From: Alphaproteobacteria bacterium
GTDB lineage: Bacteria > Pseudomonadota > Alphaproteobacteria > UBA828
Length of the DNA: 64,000 nucleotides
Assembly (NCBI GenBank): GCA_965220745.1
Contig: CBDCQT010000013.1
Span: 608,001 to 672,000, forward strand
Direction: 5' to 3'
The translations under genes were made by a program, and so were the position numbers. This document shows positions 1,471-51,522 of the stretch, in pieces; position 1 is the first letter of the stretch; the number at the start of each line of letters is the position of its first letter. The notes beneath the pieces are model-generated. The model saw nothing but the letters and a program-made list of their open reading frames with translations. It was not told the DNA's origin and did not search any database.

Positions 1471-2271
1471 TCAGACCAAGACGTACTCCAGGCGCTGCGA
1501 CTCCGGCAGCGTGAGCAGCCTGCGGATGTGGCCGGCGAGGCGCTCCGCCCAGGCCTCGACCGCCTCCGACGTGCGGATTTCGTCGTTGCGGATTTCGATG
1601 AGCAGCGACGGCAGCCCGCGCTTCTCGGCGTGAACGGGCAGCGTGTGGTCGGTGAGCACGCCGAAGTCGTAAGGCTCGTTGGCGCCGACGACGAGCCCCT
1701 CCGCCCTCAGCCACTCGATCAAGGGTGTCGACATGCGCTGGTCCTTGTCCCAGCAGATGCCGATCTCCCAGGGCCGCGGATCGCCGCCGACAAGCTGTGG
1801 GGTGAAGCTGTGGACCGCTACCAGAAGCGGCACCTGGCCAGCAGCGGCCATGCGGTCCAGCGCAGCGGTGATCGCGTCGTGATAGGGCTCGAAGATCTCG
1901 GCAATCCGCGCATCCACTGCCGCCTGATCGAGGTCCACGTTGCCGGGCACCGGCACCGTGTCGCTCACCGGCGGGATCCTGTCCGGCGCGCCCACGGGCC
2001 GGTTGCAGTCGATCACCAGGCGGGAGTAGCCGGCGAGGATCGCCTGCGCGTCGAGCAGCGCCGAAAGCCGCCGGGCCACGGCCCCTGCCCCGATATCCCA
2101 TCCGATGTGCTCGGTGCGCTCGGTCTCGCTCAGGCCGAGGTCGTCGAGCGCGGCGGGCACCCGACAGCTCGCGTGGTCGCAGACCAGCAACACGCGCGAC
2201 GTGCTCCCCTCGTTGAGGGTCTCGAAGGGCGGTGGGTCGTCGGGCCCGAGCAGTGTCGCAGACACAGGCAC
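1471..2271 (-). CDS. N-formylglutamate amidohydrolase family protein
   Basis: LLVCDHAS, HIGWDIGA, YSRLVIDCNRP, VHSFTP, IEIRNDEI. Confidence 0.9.
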   Translation of the reverse strand: MPVSATLLGPDDPPPFETLNEGSTSRVLLVCDHASCRVPAALDDLGLSETERTEHIGWDIGAGAVARRLSALLDAQAILAGYSRLVIDCNRPVGAPDRIPPVSDTVPVPGNVDLDQAAVDARIAEIFEPYHDAITAALDRMAAAGQVPLLVAVHSFTPQLVGGDPRPWEIGICWDKDQRMSTPLIEWLRAEGLVVGANEPYDFGVLTDHTLPVHAEKRGLPSLLIEIRNDEIRTSEAVEAWAERLAGHIRRLLTLPESQRLEYVLV

Positions 2272-2273
2272 GC

Positions 2274-3416
2274 CTAAATCTTATAGATGCGCTGGGCGTT
2301 CTCGACGCCGATCAACGACGCAATGCGTTCGGCCTCCGCAGCCGAGCACTCGTCGTCCTCCACCCAGCGCCCGAGCGCGCGGGCGAGCGCGGTGCGGAAG
2401 CGCAGTGCCCCCAAGTAGTAAAGCTCTGCGAGCCCGAACGCGTCGGTGCTGAAGAGCTGCTTGGTGAAGGGCACCAGCTCAAGCGCCTCGTCCATGATCC
2501 GCTGATAGCTCGGCCCCACCCAGTTCAGCGCGAAACCCACGTCGAAGTAGACGCACGGGAAGTTCTCGGACATCAGGCCCGCTTCGCGGTGGAACGGGTA
2601 GCAGTGCAGCAGCGTGATGGGGAAGCCCCAGGGCTCCACCGCCTTGATCCAGGGCGTGAGATGGCTTGGGTCCACGCGGTGCAGCTCGATGTCGGGATCG
2701 CCAATGCCGATGTGGAACTGGATCGGGAAGCCCCGCTCCCGCGCGATGTCAGCGCCGGTCCAGATCAGGTGCCGCTCCAGCACCGGGTCGGTGAGGCGCA
2801 CCGAGCCGGTCTCCTCGATCTCGGCGAGCCAGCGTCCCGCCGCCGCCTCGACCTCGGCGGGCGTCGGCTTCTCGTAGTCGATGCGCAGCGTCGCGCGGTA
2901 GGCGAGGATGGACTTTAGCCCGACTACCCCCTCGCCGAGGCAGCGCCGCAAGGCCGCCTCGAAGGCCTCCGCGAAGCCTGCGGCCGACACGCGGCCCTCC
3001 GCGACTCGCTCGGCGACCGATTCCATGCGCACGATCTCCCGCGCCGGCTGACCGGCGATCGCGCCCACCTCGGCGACACTGCAGAGCTCCTCCGGCCGGT
3101 TGCCGCTATCCACGATGTAGGTCCCGATCCCCGACGCGGCGAGGAAGCGTCGGTTCACCTCCGCCGCGCCGATCGCGCGCCGGCGCGCGGCATACGCCGC
3201 CGGCGTGCAGAACGGCTCCAGATCCAGCATCGGAGCGCACCAGCGCCGGACGCTGAGCGCCACCGGCTTGTCCCAGTGGTTCGTGCCGGGAGGCGCCGGC
3301 GCAAACGCCTCGCTCAGCGAATCCGCGAGCCGCTCGTCATCCAGGTCCACAGGGAACAGGCCGTGGCAGTGATGGTCGACCAGCGGCAGCGTGGCGGCGA
3401 TGTCGTCAATAGGCAT
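2274..3416 (-). CDS. Amidohydrolase (FluG/nodulin N-terminal-like)
   Basis: LVDHHCH metal motif, GLKSILAYR, IQFHIGIGD, LLHCYPFHREAG, LFSTDAFG. Confidence 0.88.
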   Translation of the reverse strand: MPIDDIAATLPLVDHHCHGLFPVDLDDERLADSLSEAFAPAPPGTNHWDKPVALSVRRWCAPMLDLEPFCTPAAYAARRRAIGAAEVNRRFLAASGIGTYIVDSGNRPEELCSVAEVGAIAGQPAREIVRMESVAERVAEGRVSAAGFAEAFEAALRRCLGEGVVGLKSILAYRATLRIDYEKPTPAEVEAAAGRWLAEIEETGSVRLTDPVLERHLIWTGADIARERGFPIQFHIGIGDPDIELHRVDPSHLTPWIKAVEPWGFPITLLHCYPFHREAGLMSENFPCVYFDVGFALNWVGPSYQRIMDEALELVPFTKQLFSTDAFGLAELYYLGALRFRTALARALGRWVEDDECSAAEAERIASLIGVENAQRIYKI

Positions 3417-45577: not shown

Positions 45578-45962
45578 TCTTTCGTCCATCAGATTGTCCT
45601 TCCTGAGTACCGAAAAGGCGTTGGTGTGGCCTACCCCGTTTCATGACTCCTATCTGGGTTGATAATCGCCCCCAATTCGACTCTGGAACGTTCCGGGTAC
45701 GCGTTCAGTCAGGTACATAAAGCACCCAATCTTATGGGTCCGATCTCGATCAACATGGGGCGATTCTGGCAAAGGCAACGTGCGCCGTGCACCGCACCAT
45801 AGTATTGGGGATATATGATACTGACAGACATTGAAGGAGAAATTGTAGGTTTTCAGCTACTTGGTGTATTGTCTTGCAGACTGAAGCACGCTATCGTACG
45901 CACCGTTTGGATTTCTGGTGGTGCCTAGATGGTGCCCGATACGCACCGCAAGGAAAATTCCC

Positions 45963-47117
45963 GTGCCCAAAATCACCAAGAGAACCGTCGATGCCCTCGT
46001 CCCCGAAGAGCGGGAGAGAATCCTCTGGGACGACGCCATCAAAGGCTTCGGGGTCCGTGTCCATCCGACCGGACGCAAGGTCTACATCGTCAAGTACAGA
46101 CACGAGGGGCGATCCGTCAAAGTCACCATTGGACCCCACGGCCCCATCACTCCCGCTGCCGCGCGCGCGAAGGCAGCGGAAATCGTCACCCTCGCGAAGA
46201 CCGGCCGCGATCTCGAAGGGAAGATCCCCCGTGGCAAGAGAGGCGCCACCGTGGCAGACCTCGCCAAGCGCTTCATGGACGAGTACGCGCCTGCCCATCT
46301 GAAGCCCGGCACCGCGCGGCTCTACCGCAAGATCATCGACAACCGCATCCTTCCCCGGCTCGGCAAGCGCCGGGTCGGCGATCTCGGCAAGAACGACGTC
46401 GCCGCTCTTCATCACGAGATGCGCGACGTCCCCGGCCATGCCAACCGGACGCTGAGCGTGCTCTCGCGCATGCTGACCCTCGCCGAGGTCTGGGAGATGC
46501 GGCCCGAGGGCGTCAATCCGTGCCGGCACGTCAAGAAGTATCCGGAGCACAAGCGGGAGCGGTTTCTCTCGGACGACGAGTACCGCCGTCTCGGCGCCGC
46601 GCTGCGTGACGCGGAGGAGGAGGGCTTCGTCTCCCCGGTGGCGATCGCCGCGATACGGTTGTTGATGCTGACCGGGTGCCGGAGCGGGGAGATCATGAGC
46701 CTGCGGTGGGAGCACGTCGATCTTGAGGCAGGCGAGCTCAGGTTGCCGGAGAGCAAGACCGGATCGAAGGTGGTGCACCTGGGCGATCCGGCGATAGCGG
46801 TGCTGCGGGGCATCCCGCGCGCAGACGGCAGTCCGTGGGTGTTGCCAGGCATCAGGGGTGGCAAGCACATCGCGTATCTGCACGACTCGTGGCGCCGCAT
46901 TCTCAAGCGTGCCGCGATCGAGAACCTGCGCATCCACGATCTTCGGCACAGCTTTGCCAGTGGCGGTCTGCTGGTCGGTGAAGGGCTTCCGATGATCGGC
47001 AAGCTTCTCGGCCACAACAGGGTGACGACGACCTCGCGCTATGCGCACCTGGCCAACGACCCCGTGAAGGCGGCCGCCAACCGGATCGCGAGCAGGATCG
47101 CCAAAGTGGCGGGTTGA
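45963..47117 (+). CDS. Tyrosine recombinase/integrase with N-terminal arm-binding domain
   Basis: WDD.IKGFGVRV, TGCRSGE, ESKTG, HDLRHSFAS, LLGH, RYAHL; catalytic R-K-H-R-H-Y set intact. Confidence 0.93.
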   Translation: MPKITKRTVDALVPEERERILWDDAIKGFGVRVHPTGRKVYIVKYRHEGRSVKVTIGPHGPITPAAARAKAAEIVTLAKTGRDLEGKIPRGKRGATVADLAKRFMDEYAPAHLKPGTARLYRKIIDNRILPRLGKRRVGDLGKNDVAALHHEMRDVPGHANRTLSVLSRMLTLAEVWEMRPEGVNPCRHVKKYPEHKRERFLSDDEYRRLGAALRDAEEEGFVSPVAIAAIRLLMLTGCRSGEIMSLRWEHVDLEAGELRLPESKTGSKVVHLGDPAIAVLRGIPRADGSPWVLPGIRGGKHIAYLHDSWRRILKRAAIENLRIHDLRHSFASGGLLVGEGLPMIGKLLGHNRVTTTSRYAHLANDPVKAAANRIASRIAKVAG

Positions 47118-47480: not shown

Positions 47481-49074
47481 CAGTCTGTCGGACTTTGGGG
47501 TGGTGTTCGGTTAGAATTCGGCCATGAGCAGATTCGTGGACTGCGGTCGGGACCAAGCTTTCTTGCTTCCGCCCGATCTTCGGGAGTGGATCCCGGAGGA
47601 CGATCTGGCGCACTTCGTGATCGAGGCGGTCGAGCGCGTCGACCTGGGCGCCTTCAAGGTGAACCGCCGCGGCAGCGGCTCGGCGCAGTATCACCCCCGG
47701 ATGATGCTGGCGCTTCTGATCTACTGCTATGCCAACGGGATCTTCTCGAGCCGTCGGATCGAGCGCGCGACCCGTCGCGACATCGGTGTGCGCTTTGTGG
47801 CCGCCAACAGCCATCCCGACCATGACACGATTGCGACCTTCCGGCGCGAGAACCTTGGGGCGGTGGCTGAAAGCTTTCTTCAGGTTCTGCTGTTGGCCAA
47901 GGAGTTGAAGCTGGTGAAGCTGGGGGTGGTCAGCGTCGGCGGCAGCAAGTTCGATGCCAATGCGAGCAAGCATCGCTCGGTCACCTATGACCGGGCGGGG
48001 GCGCTGATCGACCAGTTGCGGCTGGAGATCGCCGATTTGATGGAGCGTGCCGAGGCGGCGGACGCCGACGTCGGCGAGGAGGCGCAGGCGCTGCCCAGGG
48101 AGATTGCGCGCCGTGAGGCTTTGTGCGCGCGCCTGGACGCGGCGCGCCAGCGTCTTGAGGCTCAGGCCAAGGCGCGTGCGGAGGCGGAGCGAGCGGCCTA
48201 CGAGGCCAAGGTAGCAGCGCGCGCCGGGCGCAAGGGCCGGGCCAAGGGCAAGCGGCCGAAGCCGCCCGAGGAGACGCCGCGCGGCGACGAGCAGAGCAAC
48301 CTGAGCGACCCGGACAGCCGGCTGATGCGCAAGAGCAAGAGGCACGAGTACCGCCAAGCCTACAATGCGCAAGCCGTGGTGGATGCCGGGGGCTCTCAGC
48401 TGATCGTGGGCGCGCGGGTCAGCCCCTGCGCCAGCGACCGCAACGAGTTGGTGGCGGACATCGCGGCGATCGCGGCCGAACTGGGCCGGCCCGAGACGGT
48501 GCTGGCGGACAACGGCTATGCCACCGGTGCGGAGGTGGCGGCGCTCGAAGCGGACGGCATCGAGGCTCTGGTGGCGACGGCTGCGGAAGGCCGGCGGCGG
48601 CGCCACGACTTCCGCCCGAGCGGGGCCGGGACGGCGGTGAAGGAAGCCAAGGCCGCCAAGGCCGCGTGGCTCCGGGAGATGGCGAGCAAGCTCGACGGCG
48701 AAGAGGGCCGGGCGCTGTACAGGCTGCGTCAGCAAACCGTCGAGCCGGTGTTCGGCGTCATCAAGGCGGTCCTCGGCTTCACCCGCTTCTCGCTGCGCGG
48801 CCTCGACAAGGTGGCCGGCGAGTGGGACCTGGTGGCGCTGGCCTACAACTGCAAGCGCCTGCACAAGCTCACGTTGTCCATGGCGTCATGACGGCCTTCC
48901 TGGCCCGACTTCTCGATGCGAATGCGTCGACACAGCCCTGCAGTACCGGACATCGACGTTTCAGCGATCGCCCCAACCCCATCCCCGCCGTCTCATCCAA
49001 CCTCGATCGTGCCGCCGGCAAACCAAAGCCAAACCACTCATAATCGAAAGCCGACCCCAAAGTCCGACAGACTG
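47481..49074 (+). mobile_element. IS1182-family insertion sequence
   Basis: Perfect 20-bp IRs CAGTCTGTCGGACTTTGGGG (47481-47500) and CCCCAAAGTCCGACAGACTG (49055-49074); CTAG duplicated on both sides. Confidence 0.93.
47524..48891 (+). CDS. IS1182-family transposase (first catalytic Asp replaced by Gly)
   Basis: LLPPDLREWIPEDDLA, YHPRMML, PDHDTIATFR, VSVGGSKF (normally .DG.K), LADNGY, VEPVFG.IK. Confidence 0.9.
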   Translation: MSRFVDCGRDQAFLLPPDLREWIPEDDLAHFVIEAVERVDLGAFKVNRRGSGSAQYHPRMMLALLIYCYANGIFSSRRIERATRRDIGVRFVAANSHPDHDTIATFRRENLGAVAESFLQVLLLAKELKLVKLGVVSVGGSKFDANASKHRSVTYDRAGALIDQLRLEIADLMERAEAADADVGEEAQALPREIARREALCARLDAARQRLEAQAKARAEAERAAYEAKVAARAGRKGRAKGKRPKPPEETPRGDEQSNLSDPDSRLMRKSKRHEYRQAYNAQAVVDAGGSQLIVGARVSPCASDRNELVADIAAIAAELGRPETVLADNGYATGAEVAALEADGIEALVATAAEGRRRRHDFRPSGAGTAVKEAKAAKAAWLREMASKLDGEEGRALYRLRQQTVEPVFGVIKAVLGFTRFSLRGLDKVAGEWDLVALAYNCKRLHKLTLSMAS

Positions 49075-49343
49075 CTAGGTCCTGACACTGATCGACAGGG
49101 GTCTCGGCCCGTCCTCGACCAACTCCACGCTCTTTGCCTTCTGGTGGTTCCTGTACGTCGAATTGACCGCGAAAAACGCGCTGTTCGCTGTCCACGACGA
49201 GGGCGCTCGCTTCTGGGGCCGTGTCGGCTCGCTCATCGAGACGTGCAAGATGAACGGCGACGATGGGGTGGACGCCCCCTCCCGACGGCATCGAATCGTG
49301 CCAAGGTGGTGGTGCGTTGAACCACCTGAGGAAGGAGGCATCC

Positions 49344-50366
49344 ATGGACGAGGTTACCATCATCGGAATCGACTTGGCGAAGAACAGCTTTCAGTTGCAT
49401 GGTGCCCGGGCAGACGGGTCCGTTGCGTTCCGCAAGAAGCTGAGCCGAGGAAAGGTGCTCGACTTCCTCGCCAGGCAATCATGCTGTGTCGTAGCGATGG
49501 AGGCCTGCGCGAGCGCTCACTATTGGGGTCGTGAGGCGCAGGCGCTTGGACACGAGGTCAAGCTGGTCCCGCCGATCTACGTGAAGCCATTCGTGAAGCG
49601 CCAGAAGAACGATACGGCTGACGCGGAGGCGACCACCGAGGCAGCCCAGCGCCCGACCATGAGCTTCGTGGCCGTGAAGACGGAAGAACAGCAGGCCAGG
49701 GGGATGCTGTTCCGCACGCGTGATCTCCTGGTGCGCCAGCGCACGCAGACGATCAATGCTCTGCGAGGTCACTTGGCGGAGTTCGGCGTCATTGCTCCGC
49801 AGGGGCCAGCTCACGTCGGTCGCTTGGAAGCGGCACTCATGGATTCACACTCAGGGCTACCGGAACTGGTTCGCGAACTGGGTGTCCTTCTGCTGGAGCA
49901 GATCGCCGGCCTCGATGAGAAGATCGTCCGATTAGAGAGCGAGCTGCGGGCCAACGCGCGCCGGGACGAAGAAGCGTCGCGACTGATGACGATACCGGGT
50001 GTTGGGCCGATCACCGCGATGGCGGTTCAGGCATTCGCGCCTCCGATGGAGAGCTTCCGGTGCGGGCGCGACTTCTCAGCCTGGATCGGCCTGGTTCCGA
50101 GGCAGCACACAACCGGCGGCAAGCCGCGGCTGGGCAAGATATCCAAGATGGGTCAGCGCGATCTCAGACGGCTCTTGATCGTCGGTGCCATGGCCGAGAT
50201 CTCTTGGGCAGTGCGCCGCGGTACGACGAAGGATCCATGGTTGGCCTGCATGTTGGAACGCAAACCACGCAAGGTAGTCGCCGTTGCGCTGGCCAACCGG
50301 ATGGCCCGCATTATCTGGGCGCTGAACACGAAGAAGGAGATCTACCGGGCTCCCGCCGCCGCCTGA
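49344..50366 (+). CDS. IS110-family DEDD recombinase/transposase
   Basis: IGIDLAKNSFQ, AMEAC, KNDTADAEA, TIPGVGPITA, WIGLVPRQHTTGGK, VALANRMARI.WA. Confidence 0.95.
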   Translation: MDEVTIIGIDLAKNSFQLHGARADGSVAFRKKLSRGKVLDFLARQSCCVVAMEACASAHYWGREAQALGHEVKLVPPIYVKPFVKRQKNDTADAEATTEAAQRPTMSFVAVKTEEQQARGMLFRTRDLLVRQRTQTINALRGHLAEFGVIAPQGPAHVGRLEAALMDSHSGLPELVRELGVLLLEQIAGLDEKIVRLESELRANARRDEEASRLMTIPGVGPITAMAVQAFAPPMESFRCGRDFSAWIGLVPRQHTTGGKPRLGKISKMGQRDLRRLLIVGAMAEISWAVRRGTTKDPWLACMLERKPRKVVAVALANRMARIIWALNTKKEIYRAPAAA

Positions 50367-50369
50367 CAA

Positions 50370-50620
50370 GGGTGAAGGTTGGGAAGCCGTCGGGGATGTG
50401 AGCAGGTCGGAGGATCGGTAAGGGCAAACGGTCAATGAGACGGGGTCGGGAAAACCAGTGTAGGGCTCCGAGCTTTCAAGCTCGTCGCGTCGATTTTGGA
50501 CCCGATCCGCGCATCTCCATACAGGCCAGCGGCGTCTAGCAGGCCGCATCAACAGGCCGGATAGACGACTGCACCTGACCACATGAACCGAGCCGTCCAA
50601 AGAAAGCGCTTGCATCACCG
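50370..50620 (+). ncRNA. Putative seekRNA/bridge RNA of the IS1111 element
   Basis: Contains GTAGGGCTC (reverse complement of the target right flank), GCGTCGA (left-flank-like) and ATAGACGA (element right end). Confidence 0.7.
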
Positions 50621-50778
50621 GGGGCGTCCATAGACGAGCCCTACGCTTGGCTCAAGAGCACGCTGGAGAAAATCGCGGCCGGCCCCATCCTCAATCCCGA
50701 ATTCACGAACTCCTGCCCTGGAACTTCGGTCCGGCGTCAAGCTGAAAACCAAGGTGGTGCGCTTGCACCGGTCTCACG

Positions 50779-51522
50779 TCAGAGTCTGCTGAAGGCCCAG
50801 ATCACCGTGCCCACGATGTGGGCCTCGTCGACGAGGCAGGTATAGGGCTCGTAGGCAGGATTGGCGGAGTGCAGACGGATCGCGGGAGGCTCAGTGTGGA
50901 TCAGCATCTCGACCCGCTTGACCACGAGGCCGCCGCCGTCCCAGAGCACGACCATCTCACCAGTCACCGGCACGCGGCGAGAGGTGTCGACCACGATCCT
51001 GTCGCCCTCGCCGACGAGGGGCTCCATGGAATCGCCGCGGGCGCCGAGGATGCGCAGGTTCTCGGGCGCGGTGCGTCCCTCGTGGCGGATCATGGCGTCG
51101 GGCAGGTACCAGCGCGCCGCCTCAGCAGCGTTGTCCTCATTGAGAGCCCCGGGACCGGCAGAGGCGTCCACAGCCATTTCGCGGACCGCGGATACCGGCG
51201 CGTTCGGAAGCTGCGGTGGCCTGAAGCGCGGGGTTCGCGGCTTCGCTGGCCTGCGCTTCGGCACGTAATCGTGACGCAACTCCTCCGGGTCGCACCCGAG
51301 CCATTCGGCGAGCGCGCTGCGGTCGCGCGACCTGAGCGCCTTGGGGACGCCGCGTTCGAGGAACTGGTGCATGTACGAGGAGCCGCGGCCGATGGCGAGG
51401 GAGGCCTCCCGCATTGTGGCGTCCCGCTCGCGCAGCAGGTGGCGGATTCTCTTTCTGATGGGGTCGTTCTGCAGCAGACGTGCCTTGTCGTCATCTGCCC
51501 GGTTCCGGGGTTGATCGTGCAT
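50779..51522 (-). CDS. Phage cI/LexA-like repressor with S24 peptidase domain
   Basis: N-terminal HTH (ASLAIGR.SSYMHQFL.RG.P), Ala-Gly site ASAGPG, GDSMEP (Ser), VVKRV (Lys). Confidence 0.9.
   Translation of the reverse strand: MHDQPRNRADDDKARLLQNDPIRKRIRHLLRERDATMREASLAIGRGSSYMHQFLERGVPKALRSRDRSALAEWLGCDPEELRHDYVPKRRPAKPRTPRFRPPQLPNAPVSAVREMAVDASAGPGALNEDNAAEAARWYLPDAMIRHEGRTAPENLRILGARGDSMEPLVGEGDRIVVDTSRRVPVTGEMVVLWDGGGLVVKRVEMLIHTEPPAIRLHSANPAYEPYTCLVDEAHIVGTVIWAFSRL

Follow-up and report, generated by a model that had tools for sequence, protein, structure and literature searches.

A putative RNA-guided IS1111-group element whose predicted guides match its insertion site in an IS66 transposase gene

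What brings one insertion sequence (IS) to lie inside the transposase gene of another, and how much of the answer can be read from the DNA itself? The question is raised by a 64,000-nucleotide stretch from an alphaproteobacterium (GenBank assembly GCA_965220745.1, contig CBDCQT010000013.1, positions 608,001 to 672,000; hereafter, the window), which carries an IS1111-group element within a remnant of an IS66 tnpC gene. Our data point to a bridge/seek-RNA-guided IS1111 element whose target lies in codons of an IS66 subfamily, a reading to which we assign a probability of about 85%. It is carried by what we observed directly, namely, the anatomy of the element, the covariation of its guides with flanks and ends, the identity of the flanking gene, and the distribution of the target sequence. 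The element adds a clean example to a known kind without introducing a principle of its own, as the mechanism was described in 2024 and is unchanged by our result.

With respect to the protein, the transposase open reading frame matches PF01548 (E 4.2e-14) and PF02371 (E 2.8e-21) in Pfam and scores 311.6 bits against the NCBIfam model NF033542, "IS110 family RNA-guided transposase," for which the cut-off is 140. Among the sequences in PDB, it matches the ISCro4 and IS621 transposases, chiefly in the C-terminal domain. According to PMC11187229, IS1111 elements are told apart from IS110 elements by a GL-P----S/TG motif, a transposase of 330-350 aa, subterminal repeats, and a downstream non-coding region. 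The window element shows the domains, the repeats, the downstream non-coding region, the size, and the motif, which reads GLVPRQHTTG in the translation. Its subterminal repeats form an 11-bp perfect pair, with extensions of 6 nt on the left and of 4 nt plus a 2-nt core on the right, and its non-coding stretches measure 270 nt on the 3' side (the stop codon ends at 50366 and the element at 50636) and 81 nt on the 5' side. The IS1111 element that a preliminary description of this DNA had recognized was confirmed, with an extent of 49263-50636, and all motif positions given there stood when we recomputed them.

The exact ends of the element were placed by comparison with relatives. We searched 60 related genomes together with the element's own genome; 23 of these 61 gave a match, and 50 loci (L001-L050) yielded 24 end-to-end copies, 75-100% identical, with the window's own copy included. 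In the window, GACGA stands at both junctions, so that the join is ambiguous over 5 nt in this copy. Across the 24 copies, however, the bases always common to the left flank and the right end are only two, CG or TG, situated directly before the left end ATGGRG (19/24 copies; AGGGAG in 3/24 and ATGGAA in 2/24). Since only those bases are shared across relatives, we place the core of the window element at the CG of 49261-62 and 50635-36. This moves the crossover one base to the left of the breakpoint GA that had been proposed before relatives were compared. In metagenome contigs, the exact match of relatives starts at 49261, and contigs of the run that is probably from the source cross both junctions with zero differences. 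With these ends, the element is an intact-looking IS1111-group insertion sequence, present as a single copy in its own genome.

On both sides of the element, the DNA derives from one IS66 tnpC gene. A split match to PF13817 covers profile positions 1-10 in the left piece (E 0.006) and 13-26 in the right piece (E 0.0094), each below the cut-off singly, yet colinear. Using blastn against intact IS66 (L102 and L117), we found that 49159-49264 and 50636-50770 fall on adjacent stretches with a 3-nt overlap, CGA. Because the flanks are colinear with intact IS66, the host is a 3' remnant of IS66 only, cut at about 49159 beside an IS1182-family element. The interruption of IS66 tnpC seen in the preliminary description is borne out by these colinear PF13817 pieces and blastn matches. 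With regard to target duplication beyond the core, the overlap of the flanks on intact IS66 is limited to CGA; the orientation at the target is represented by this one insertion. The flanks translate as ...GSLIETCKMNGD on the left and PYAWLKSTLEKIAAG... on the right, and the left remnant has the protein motif SLIETCKMNG of the intact copies in the genus. Intact IS66 copies of the same subfamily (...SLIETCKMNGVEPYAWLKSTLEKIAAGHPQS...) share the remnant's protein and read AACGGCGTCGAGCCCTAC; the guess that GCGTCGA would correspond to intact NGVEP codons was therefore right.

The 3' non-coding region, in turn, has the layout of a gene for a two-module guide RNA. Nineteen distinct non-coding regions align along a conserved scaffold with two hypervariable blocks, block 1 after AAACCAG (50459-68) and block 2 after the hairpin GAGC-loop-GCTC (50485-92), followed by the core and AT. 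In relatives found in metagenome contigs, the match ends at 50458 and restarts at 50498, skipping the guide region. In the RNAalifold consensus, a conserved stem closes an internal loop that contains both target guides, one on each side of a small hairpin (Table 1). Target guide 1 is complementary to the top strand of the right flank together with the core G. Target guide 2 agrees with the left flank GCGACGAT at 7/8 positions and with the GCGTCGA of intact IS66 perfectly; GCGTCGA occupies 50487-50493, and the final T of the guide (50494) matches the element's left end only. Together, the guides perfectly match the intact 14-mer GCGTCGAGCCCTAC. Donor guide 1, a segment absent from the list drawn up earlier, is invariant in the family, so that its covariation is impossible; the A/G variation of the left end lies opposite U. 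The order of the segments fits the IS1111 seekRNAs of PMC11187229, where the segment complementary to the top strand comes first, 5' of the one complementary to the bottom strand, with overlap between the two in the target. In PMC11208160, 93% of IS1111 elements have a bridge RNA predicted in their right end, pairing over 8-14 nt.

Table 1. Features of the IS1111-group element, its predicted guide RNA region, and the flanking IS66 remnant (window coordinates)
Feature	Position	Strand	Description
IS66 tnpC remnant, left piece	49159..49262	+	Ends ...AAC GGC GAC G; last CG (49261-62) is the left core copy
IS1111-group insertion sequence	49263..50636	+	1374 bp including one CG core copy at the right end; 24 aligned full-length copies
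Left terminal extension ATGGGG	49263..49268	+	Outside the inverted repeat
Left subterminal inverted repeat TGGACGCCCCC	49269..49279	+	11 nt, 100% complementary to 50620-50630
Transposase gene, 340 aa	49344..50366	+	DEDD/RuvC-like N-terminal domain and IS110-type C-terminal domain
Putative target-binding module	50442..50508	+	Outer stem GGGGTCGGG / CCCGATCC and CCA / TGG close an internal loop; RNAalifold consensus, 19 sequences
Putative target guide 1, GTAGGGCTC	50460..50468	+	Exact reverse complement of GAGCCCTAC (50636-50644)
Conserved hairpin CGAGC-TTTCAA-GCTCG	50469..50484	+	Between the target guides; consensus pairs at alignment columns 88-91/98-101
Putative target guide 2, GCGTCGAT	50487..50494	+	Same sense as left flank plus core; would pair with the bottom strand
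Putative donor guide 1, CTCCAT	50515..50520	+	Complements left end ATGGGG with one G.U pair; invariant in the family
Conserved hairpin GCGGC...GCCGC in the donor-binding module	50529..50547	+	Alignment columns 147-151/165-169; invariant in 19/19
Putative donor guide 2, ATAGACGA	50561..50568	+	Identical to 50630-50637: right end, core, and next base, same sense
TTGCAT, outward-facing	50610..50615	+	Possible -35 box of a junction promoter; 17 nt before GACG|AT (GAYG|AT in relatives) of the inferred circle junction
Right subterminal inverted repeat GGGGGCGTCCA	50620..50630	+	Pairs with 49269-79
Right terminal extension TAGA and right CG core copy (CG at 50635-36)	50631..50636	+	
IS66 tnpC remnant, right piece	50637..50770	+	Starts A GCC CTA C..., reaches the IS66 end; frameshift before ELLPWNF

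RNA-guided targeting is well supported by covariation between these segments and the insertion sites of relatives. We compared 21 distinct element/flank combinations with the 382 mismatched pairs that were left after nearly-same flanks had been dropped. The complementary run of block 1 averages 6.3 nt with its own right flank versus 3.35 nt in mismatched pairs, and runs of at least 7 nt occur in 9/21 own pairs versus 2/382. Block 2 shows a mean identity of 5.0/6 to its own left flank versus 2.0/6 when mismatched, with full 6/6 identity in 8 of the 21 own pairs and in none of the 382 others. The donor 7-mer equals the right end in 23/24 copies, across 5 covarying sequence types, and where the core switches between CG and TG, the flank, target guide 2, and the donor guide switch together. 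The two guide segments named in the preliminary description coincide with the variable blocks, and its reading of the named segments as target- and donor-binding is supported. In 5000 dinucleotide shuffles of the window's own non-coding region, the 9-nt match of guide 1 was equalled 16 times, and both guide matches in the correct order within 45 nt were found in 3.

A number of observations weigh against this reading. By itself, guide 2 is at chance level, a 6/8 match being found in 4473/5000 shuffles; since its own match is at this level, guide 2 is backed by family covariation instead. Guide 2 and the left flank disagree at the position directly before the core. In an 88% identical relative (L048:1501-7192, G011:C1), guide 1 mismatches the present right flank, and guide 2 matches the left flank; this copy is split by a 4.3-kb insertion at element position 1013. 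Compensatory change in the scaffold stems was detected by RNAalifold in 6/43 pairs, few because the sequences are close to one another, and the single-sequence fold has a z score of -1.36, with 12/200 shuffles folding at least as well. A relaxed E-value search of Rfam over 48500-51500 gave zero matching families. The public sequencing runs consist of contigs, from which RNA ends, expression level, and rare junctions are not readable. They listed no joint corresponding to a circle junction, which says little in either direction because rare forms are lost from contigs. Contigs of RNA libraries over the non-coding region come mostly from a relative with other guides and are no proof of transcription; likewise, the higher summed depth over this region in RNA library X7 is not evidence of transcription, nor is the guide region being without cover in run X5 evidence of absence. 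Furthermore, there is one insertion only, as searches for a further copy bearing these guides came up empty in the element's own genome, in representative genomes, and in a plasmid collection, where a 77-nt guide module query gave 20 records with a best identity of 80.5%, none with these guides. When metagenome contigs were scanned for GGCGWCG|ATGGRGTGGACGCC, the left junction, 21 stretches emerged, of which 0/21 continue as the element; the scan picked up coding sequences because the pattern is too GC-rich. A scan of the representative genomes for both guides at scaffold spacing returned 2 stretches, both without the scaffold, which we rejected as chance matches.

Could the insertion instead have been an off-target or half-match event, with the resemblance of the guides partly a coincidence and the true target elsewhere? 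The single-base discrepancy between guide 2 and the actual left flank, together with the chance level of that guide alone, would fit such an event, and half-match insertion of IS621 is reported in 10.64898/2026.08.31.748434. We nevertheless consider it highly improbable, as both guides match, guide 1 over 9 nt at the frequency given above, both lie in blocks that covary with the flanks of relatives, and the intact form of the site is perfect to both.

RNA-guided insertion into an IS66 copy would then proceed as in the published mechanism of the family, from which the making of the RNA, its binding by the protein, the formation of a circle, and recombination at CG are taken over by analogy. In this scenario, the 3' non-coding region would encode a two-module bridge/seek RNA. 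Two short segments of module 1 would pair with opposite strands of the target, flanking the CG core, and two segments of module 2 would pair with the joined ends of the element itself. The RNA-loaded DEDD recombinase would join the circular element to GCGT-CG-AGCCCTAC, a sequence that, within the genus, is found almost exclusively in the ...CKMNGVEPYAWL... codons of a single IS66 subfamily. The element landed a single time; of the IS66 copy that it entered, a truncated and frameshifted remnant is left. The inferred circle junction reads ...CCATAGACG|ATGGGG..., and a promoter could perhaps arise only upon joining of the ends, by way of TTGCAT (50610-50615), 50631-50636, and 49263-49264. TTGCAT is conserved in all 19 relatives and GCTTG is invariant in 19/19 sequences; junction promoters are mentioned in the introduction of PMC11187229.

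How far the element is specialized on IS66, as the preliminary description had proposed, is a question of its own. With one copy and one insertion, a target preference cannot be shown from repeated events, and specialization, which is partly supported, rests on where the target sequence occurs. IS66 C-terminal motifs are present in 19/21 genomes of the genus; 30 loci were examined, and 24 gave a motif row. Mismatches to the 15-mer target numbered 0 in 5 rows, 1 in 4, and 2-6 in 15. Among the 20 other genomes of the genus, 6 contain the 14-mer, with 43 occurrences in all and 37 of these in one genome (G011), against 6 occurrences of a reversed control, and 42 of the 43 lie inside PF13817 matches, as judged by comparing coordinates by hand. 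In the element's own genome, zero other sites lie within 1 mismatch of the 18-mer, and a single-copy element fits a genome holding no further matching target. Across 400 genomes of the class, the 15-mer gave 10 matches versus 7 for the control (hand count), and 0/10 lie in IS66, which speaks against specialization. So do the closest relatives, 89% and 88% identical, which have other guides and other targets. In the comparison of homologues that had been suggested, guides did covary with insertion sites, and the window's insertion was the only one seen at this IS66 tnpC target.

The element might live as a dedicated parasite on a single IS66 subfamily, with its guides kept on the tnpC motif because a multi-copy IS66 offers many harmless, genome-travelling sites. 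The concentration of exact targets in IS66 C-terminal motifs favors this idea, as do guides that are perfect against the intact subfamily sequence. Runs with parts of the element also carry intact IS66 targets (a joint from 49257 to 50635 with TGT between, and a loose end at 50635), and sister lineages likewise use repeats, namely, a unit of about 110 nt with empty copies and the right inverted repeat of sister elements. Set against this are the one known insertion, the 0/43 perfect genus targets that are occupied, the finding that the sole PF13817 match listed as starting at the split position belongs to the orthologue of the same locus, the absence of IS66 among the class-wide matches, and the targets of the 89% and 88% relatives. 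Since the nearest relatives have other targets, the specificity is young or short-lived. On balance, we hold dedicated parasitism only tentatively, at somewhat less than even odds.

The mismatch between guide 2 and the left flank calls for an explanation as well. The window has the codon GAC (variant target GCGACGAGCCCTAC) where intact copies have GTC, and the T-to-A change at 49260 may have arisen after insertion, in a decaying pseudogene, instead of being a mismatch tolerated by the recombinase. In each of the 24 IS66 motif rows, this codon stands for V or I; in the window, it stands for D. The remnant is truncated at about 49159 and frameshifted, a setting in which a later change would be plausible, and its flanks differ from those of the orthologue in genome G006 at 7/102 and 102/2982 positions, so that substitutions have accumulated. 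Yet the 89% relative (L002) mismatches guide 2 at the same position, the base before the core, and in both cases the flank carries A, just as the right end of the element itself does at the corresponding position. In addition, 49260 and 50635 may be joined directly in one metagenome contig; such a joint would represent an empty site in which the A is already present, although only 26 letters stand on the shorter side and the letters between are not known. We regard the two accounts as evenly balanced. A separate variant was seen in run X6, where a 180-nt contig of the non-coding region has C50466T as its sole difference, at a depth of 3.9, and may be an error; with this change, guide 1 would be directed to GAA in place of GAG, a synonymous codon in the IS66 motif. 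The same run holds a 663-nt contig with a differing left flank.

The G006 orthologue offers a view of the locus without the element. Contig C73 of that genome (L128) shares the remnant and the right-hand neighborhood, with 98% identity across 463 nt of the right flank, and the alignment of the two loci extends to 3084 bp in two pieces that are 96.4% and 93.1% identical; the right piece of the remnant differs by 2 bp. At the insertion point (reverse strand, about 2968-2982; window 49259/50638), this contig reads AACGGCG^CCCTAC, without an IS1111 element. Relative to intact IS66, 5 nt are missing there, and relative to the window, the element and both GACGA copies; a precise empty site would read GGCGACGAGCCC. 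This gap may be the scar of an imprecise loss of the element and not an independent deletion. Exactly the 5 nt doubled at the window junctions are gone, and with only 3 other gap openings in the 3084 aligned bp, the probability of a chance gap within about 10 bp of the site is on the order of 1%. However, this is a single locus, noticed post hoc, and excision as published is precise or else single-stranded and leaves the donor intact; in PMC11187229, a resealed donor was not detected, a result that is silent on scars. We therefore regard a scar as doubtful. Genome G012, in which the same deleted 15-mer occurs, was dismissed, as the match is a chance one in an unrelated gene. If the scar were real, it would be in vivo evidence for what becomes of the donor site, a point left unsettled by the papers of 2024-2026.

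The relatives of the element fall into about 13 guide classes, and some of their targets are mobile or repeated DNA. A sibling lineage with 77% identity (L002 at 120-1500; L037 at 1735-3115) has entered two differing sister IS1111 elements, each time within the right inverted repeat, at CACCGGGGGCG|TCCATAGACG, a site that is spelled out by its guides, TCTATGGAC and CGGAGGCG; from its sequence, it looks like an insertion sequence homing to its own kin. The combined loci span L002:120-2860 (G005:C4) and L037:1501-3115 (G005:C2). The G047/G004 lineage inserts into a repeat unit about 110 nt long, which in G004 also occurs uninterrupted (...CCGTGGTACA|TTTTTACGCC...; L157, L158, L159, G004:C1; L032:1434-1500). 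An IS gene was rejected as the target of this lineage, where a weak rve match adjoins but the target is the repeat, and also as that of the G014 lineage, where a gene for an AtzD/TrzD ring-opening amidohydrolase adjoins. Three copies of an 82% relative in G014:C2 (L024, L003, L031) have identical 40-nt flanks on both sides, which suggests a triplicated catabolic segment rather than three insertions. Repeated sequences such as attC sites and REP are often targets of IS1111 elements, according to PMC11187229. One could go further and propose that one IS1111 lineage within a single genus has diversified into more than 10 RNA-encoded specificities, several of them homing to mobile DNA (the IS66 tnpC motif and the right inverted repeat of sister elements), with the G006 gap a scar of imprecise loss that destroyed the target; taken as a whole, this proposal seems unlikely to us.

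The core of IS621 is CT. That of the window element is YG, and the similarity between the two proteins is chiefly in the C-terminal domain (E 3.6e-10). Compared with PMC11208160, the window element resembles IS621 in having one RNA with target- and donor-binding loops, the segments of which pair on opposite strands around a dinucleotide core, and it is unlike IS621 in that its RNA lies in the right end, its guide order is reversed, and its inverted repeats are long. The conserved bases past the core (AT after the core in guide 2) could be equivalent to the "handshake guides" of PMC13626964. Counterparts within the IS1111 family are ISEc11, ISKpn4/ISPst6, and ISPa11 of PMC11187229, which share the DEDD transposase of 330-350 aa with GL-P----S/TG, subterminal repeats of 11-13 bp, the downstream non-coding region, and the guide order; there too, close relatives differ in target ("natural reprogramming"). 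Unlike the extensions of those elements (7 + 3 or 6 + 3), those in the window total 12 nt (6 + 6, with one core); the window target, moreover, is inside the transposase coding sequence of another IS family, and the window element is known from sequence alone. In a known IS1111-group element with a fixed target in another mobile element, this target is a transposon end, whereas it is an IS66 tnpC coding motif in the window and the right inverted repeat of a sister IS1111 element in the sibling lineage L002/L037. The term "IS66" occurs neither in the text of PMC11187229 nor in 10.64898/2026.08.14.744561, and no IS1111 or IS110 element in IS66 is reported in the titles and abstracts that our literature searches listed, although entries in ISfinder or the supplementary tables of the 2024 papers may already include one.

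Around the element, the neighborhood looks like the edge of an island or prophage, with genes for a tyrosine recombinase (45918-47117), an IS1182-family transposase (47524-48891), and, on the minus strand, an S24 (LexA/CI-like) peptidase (50779-51522). The IS1182-family transposase adjoins the truncated IS66 remnant and is single-copy, so that its element's ends cannot be defined. The only near-complete IS66 tnpC of the same genome (L065:4182-6266; G000:C10:161181-163265, minus strand) is also split, at a point that separates the DDE domain from the C-terminal element; its two parts stand about 2.5 kb apart, and the intervening DNA encodes a 694-aa large serine recombinase with Resolvase, Recombinase, and Zn_ribbon_recom domains.

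In conclusion, the guides of an uncharacterized IS1111 element can be read from its sequence and checked by covariation in few relatives, which makes such reading useful for annotation and for choosing natural scaffolds with many specificities. The roughly 13 naturally reprogrammed guide pairs on one scaffold map its programmable positions to 50459-50468, 50485-50492, and the core. Targets in a transposase coding motif and in a sibling inverted repeat extend the list of "safe" repeated targets used by this family.

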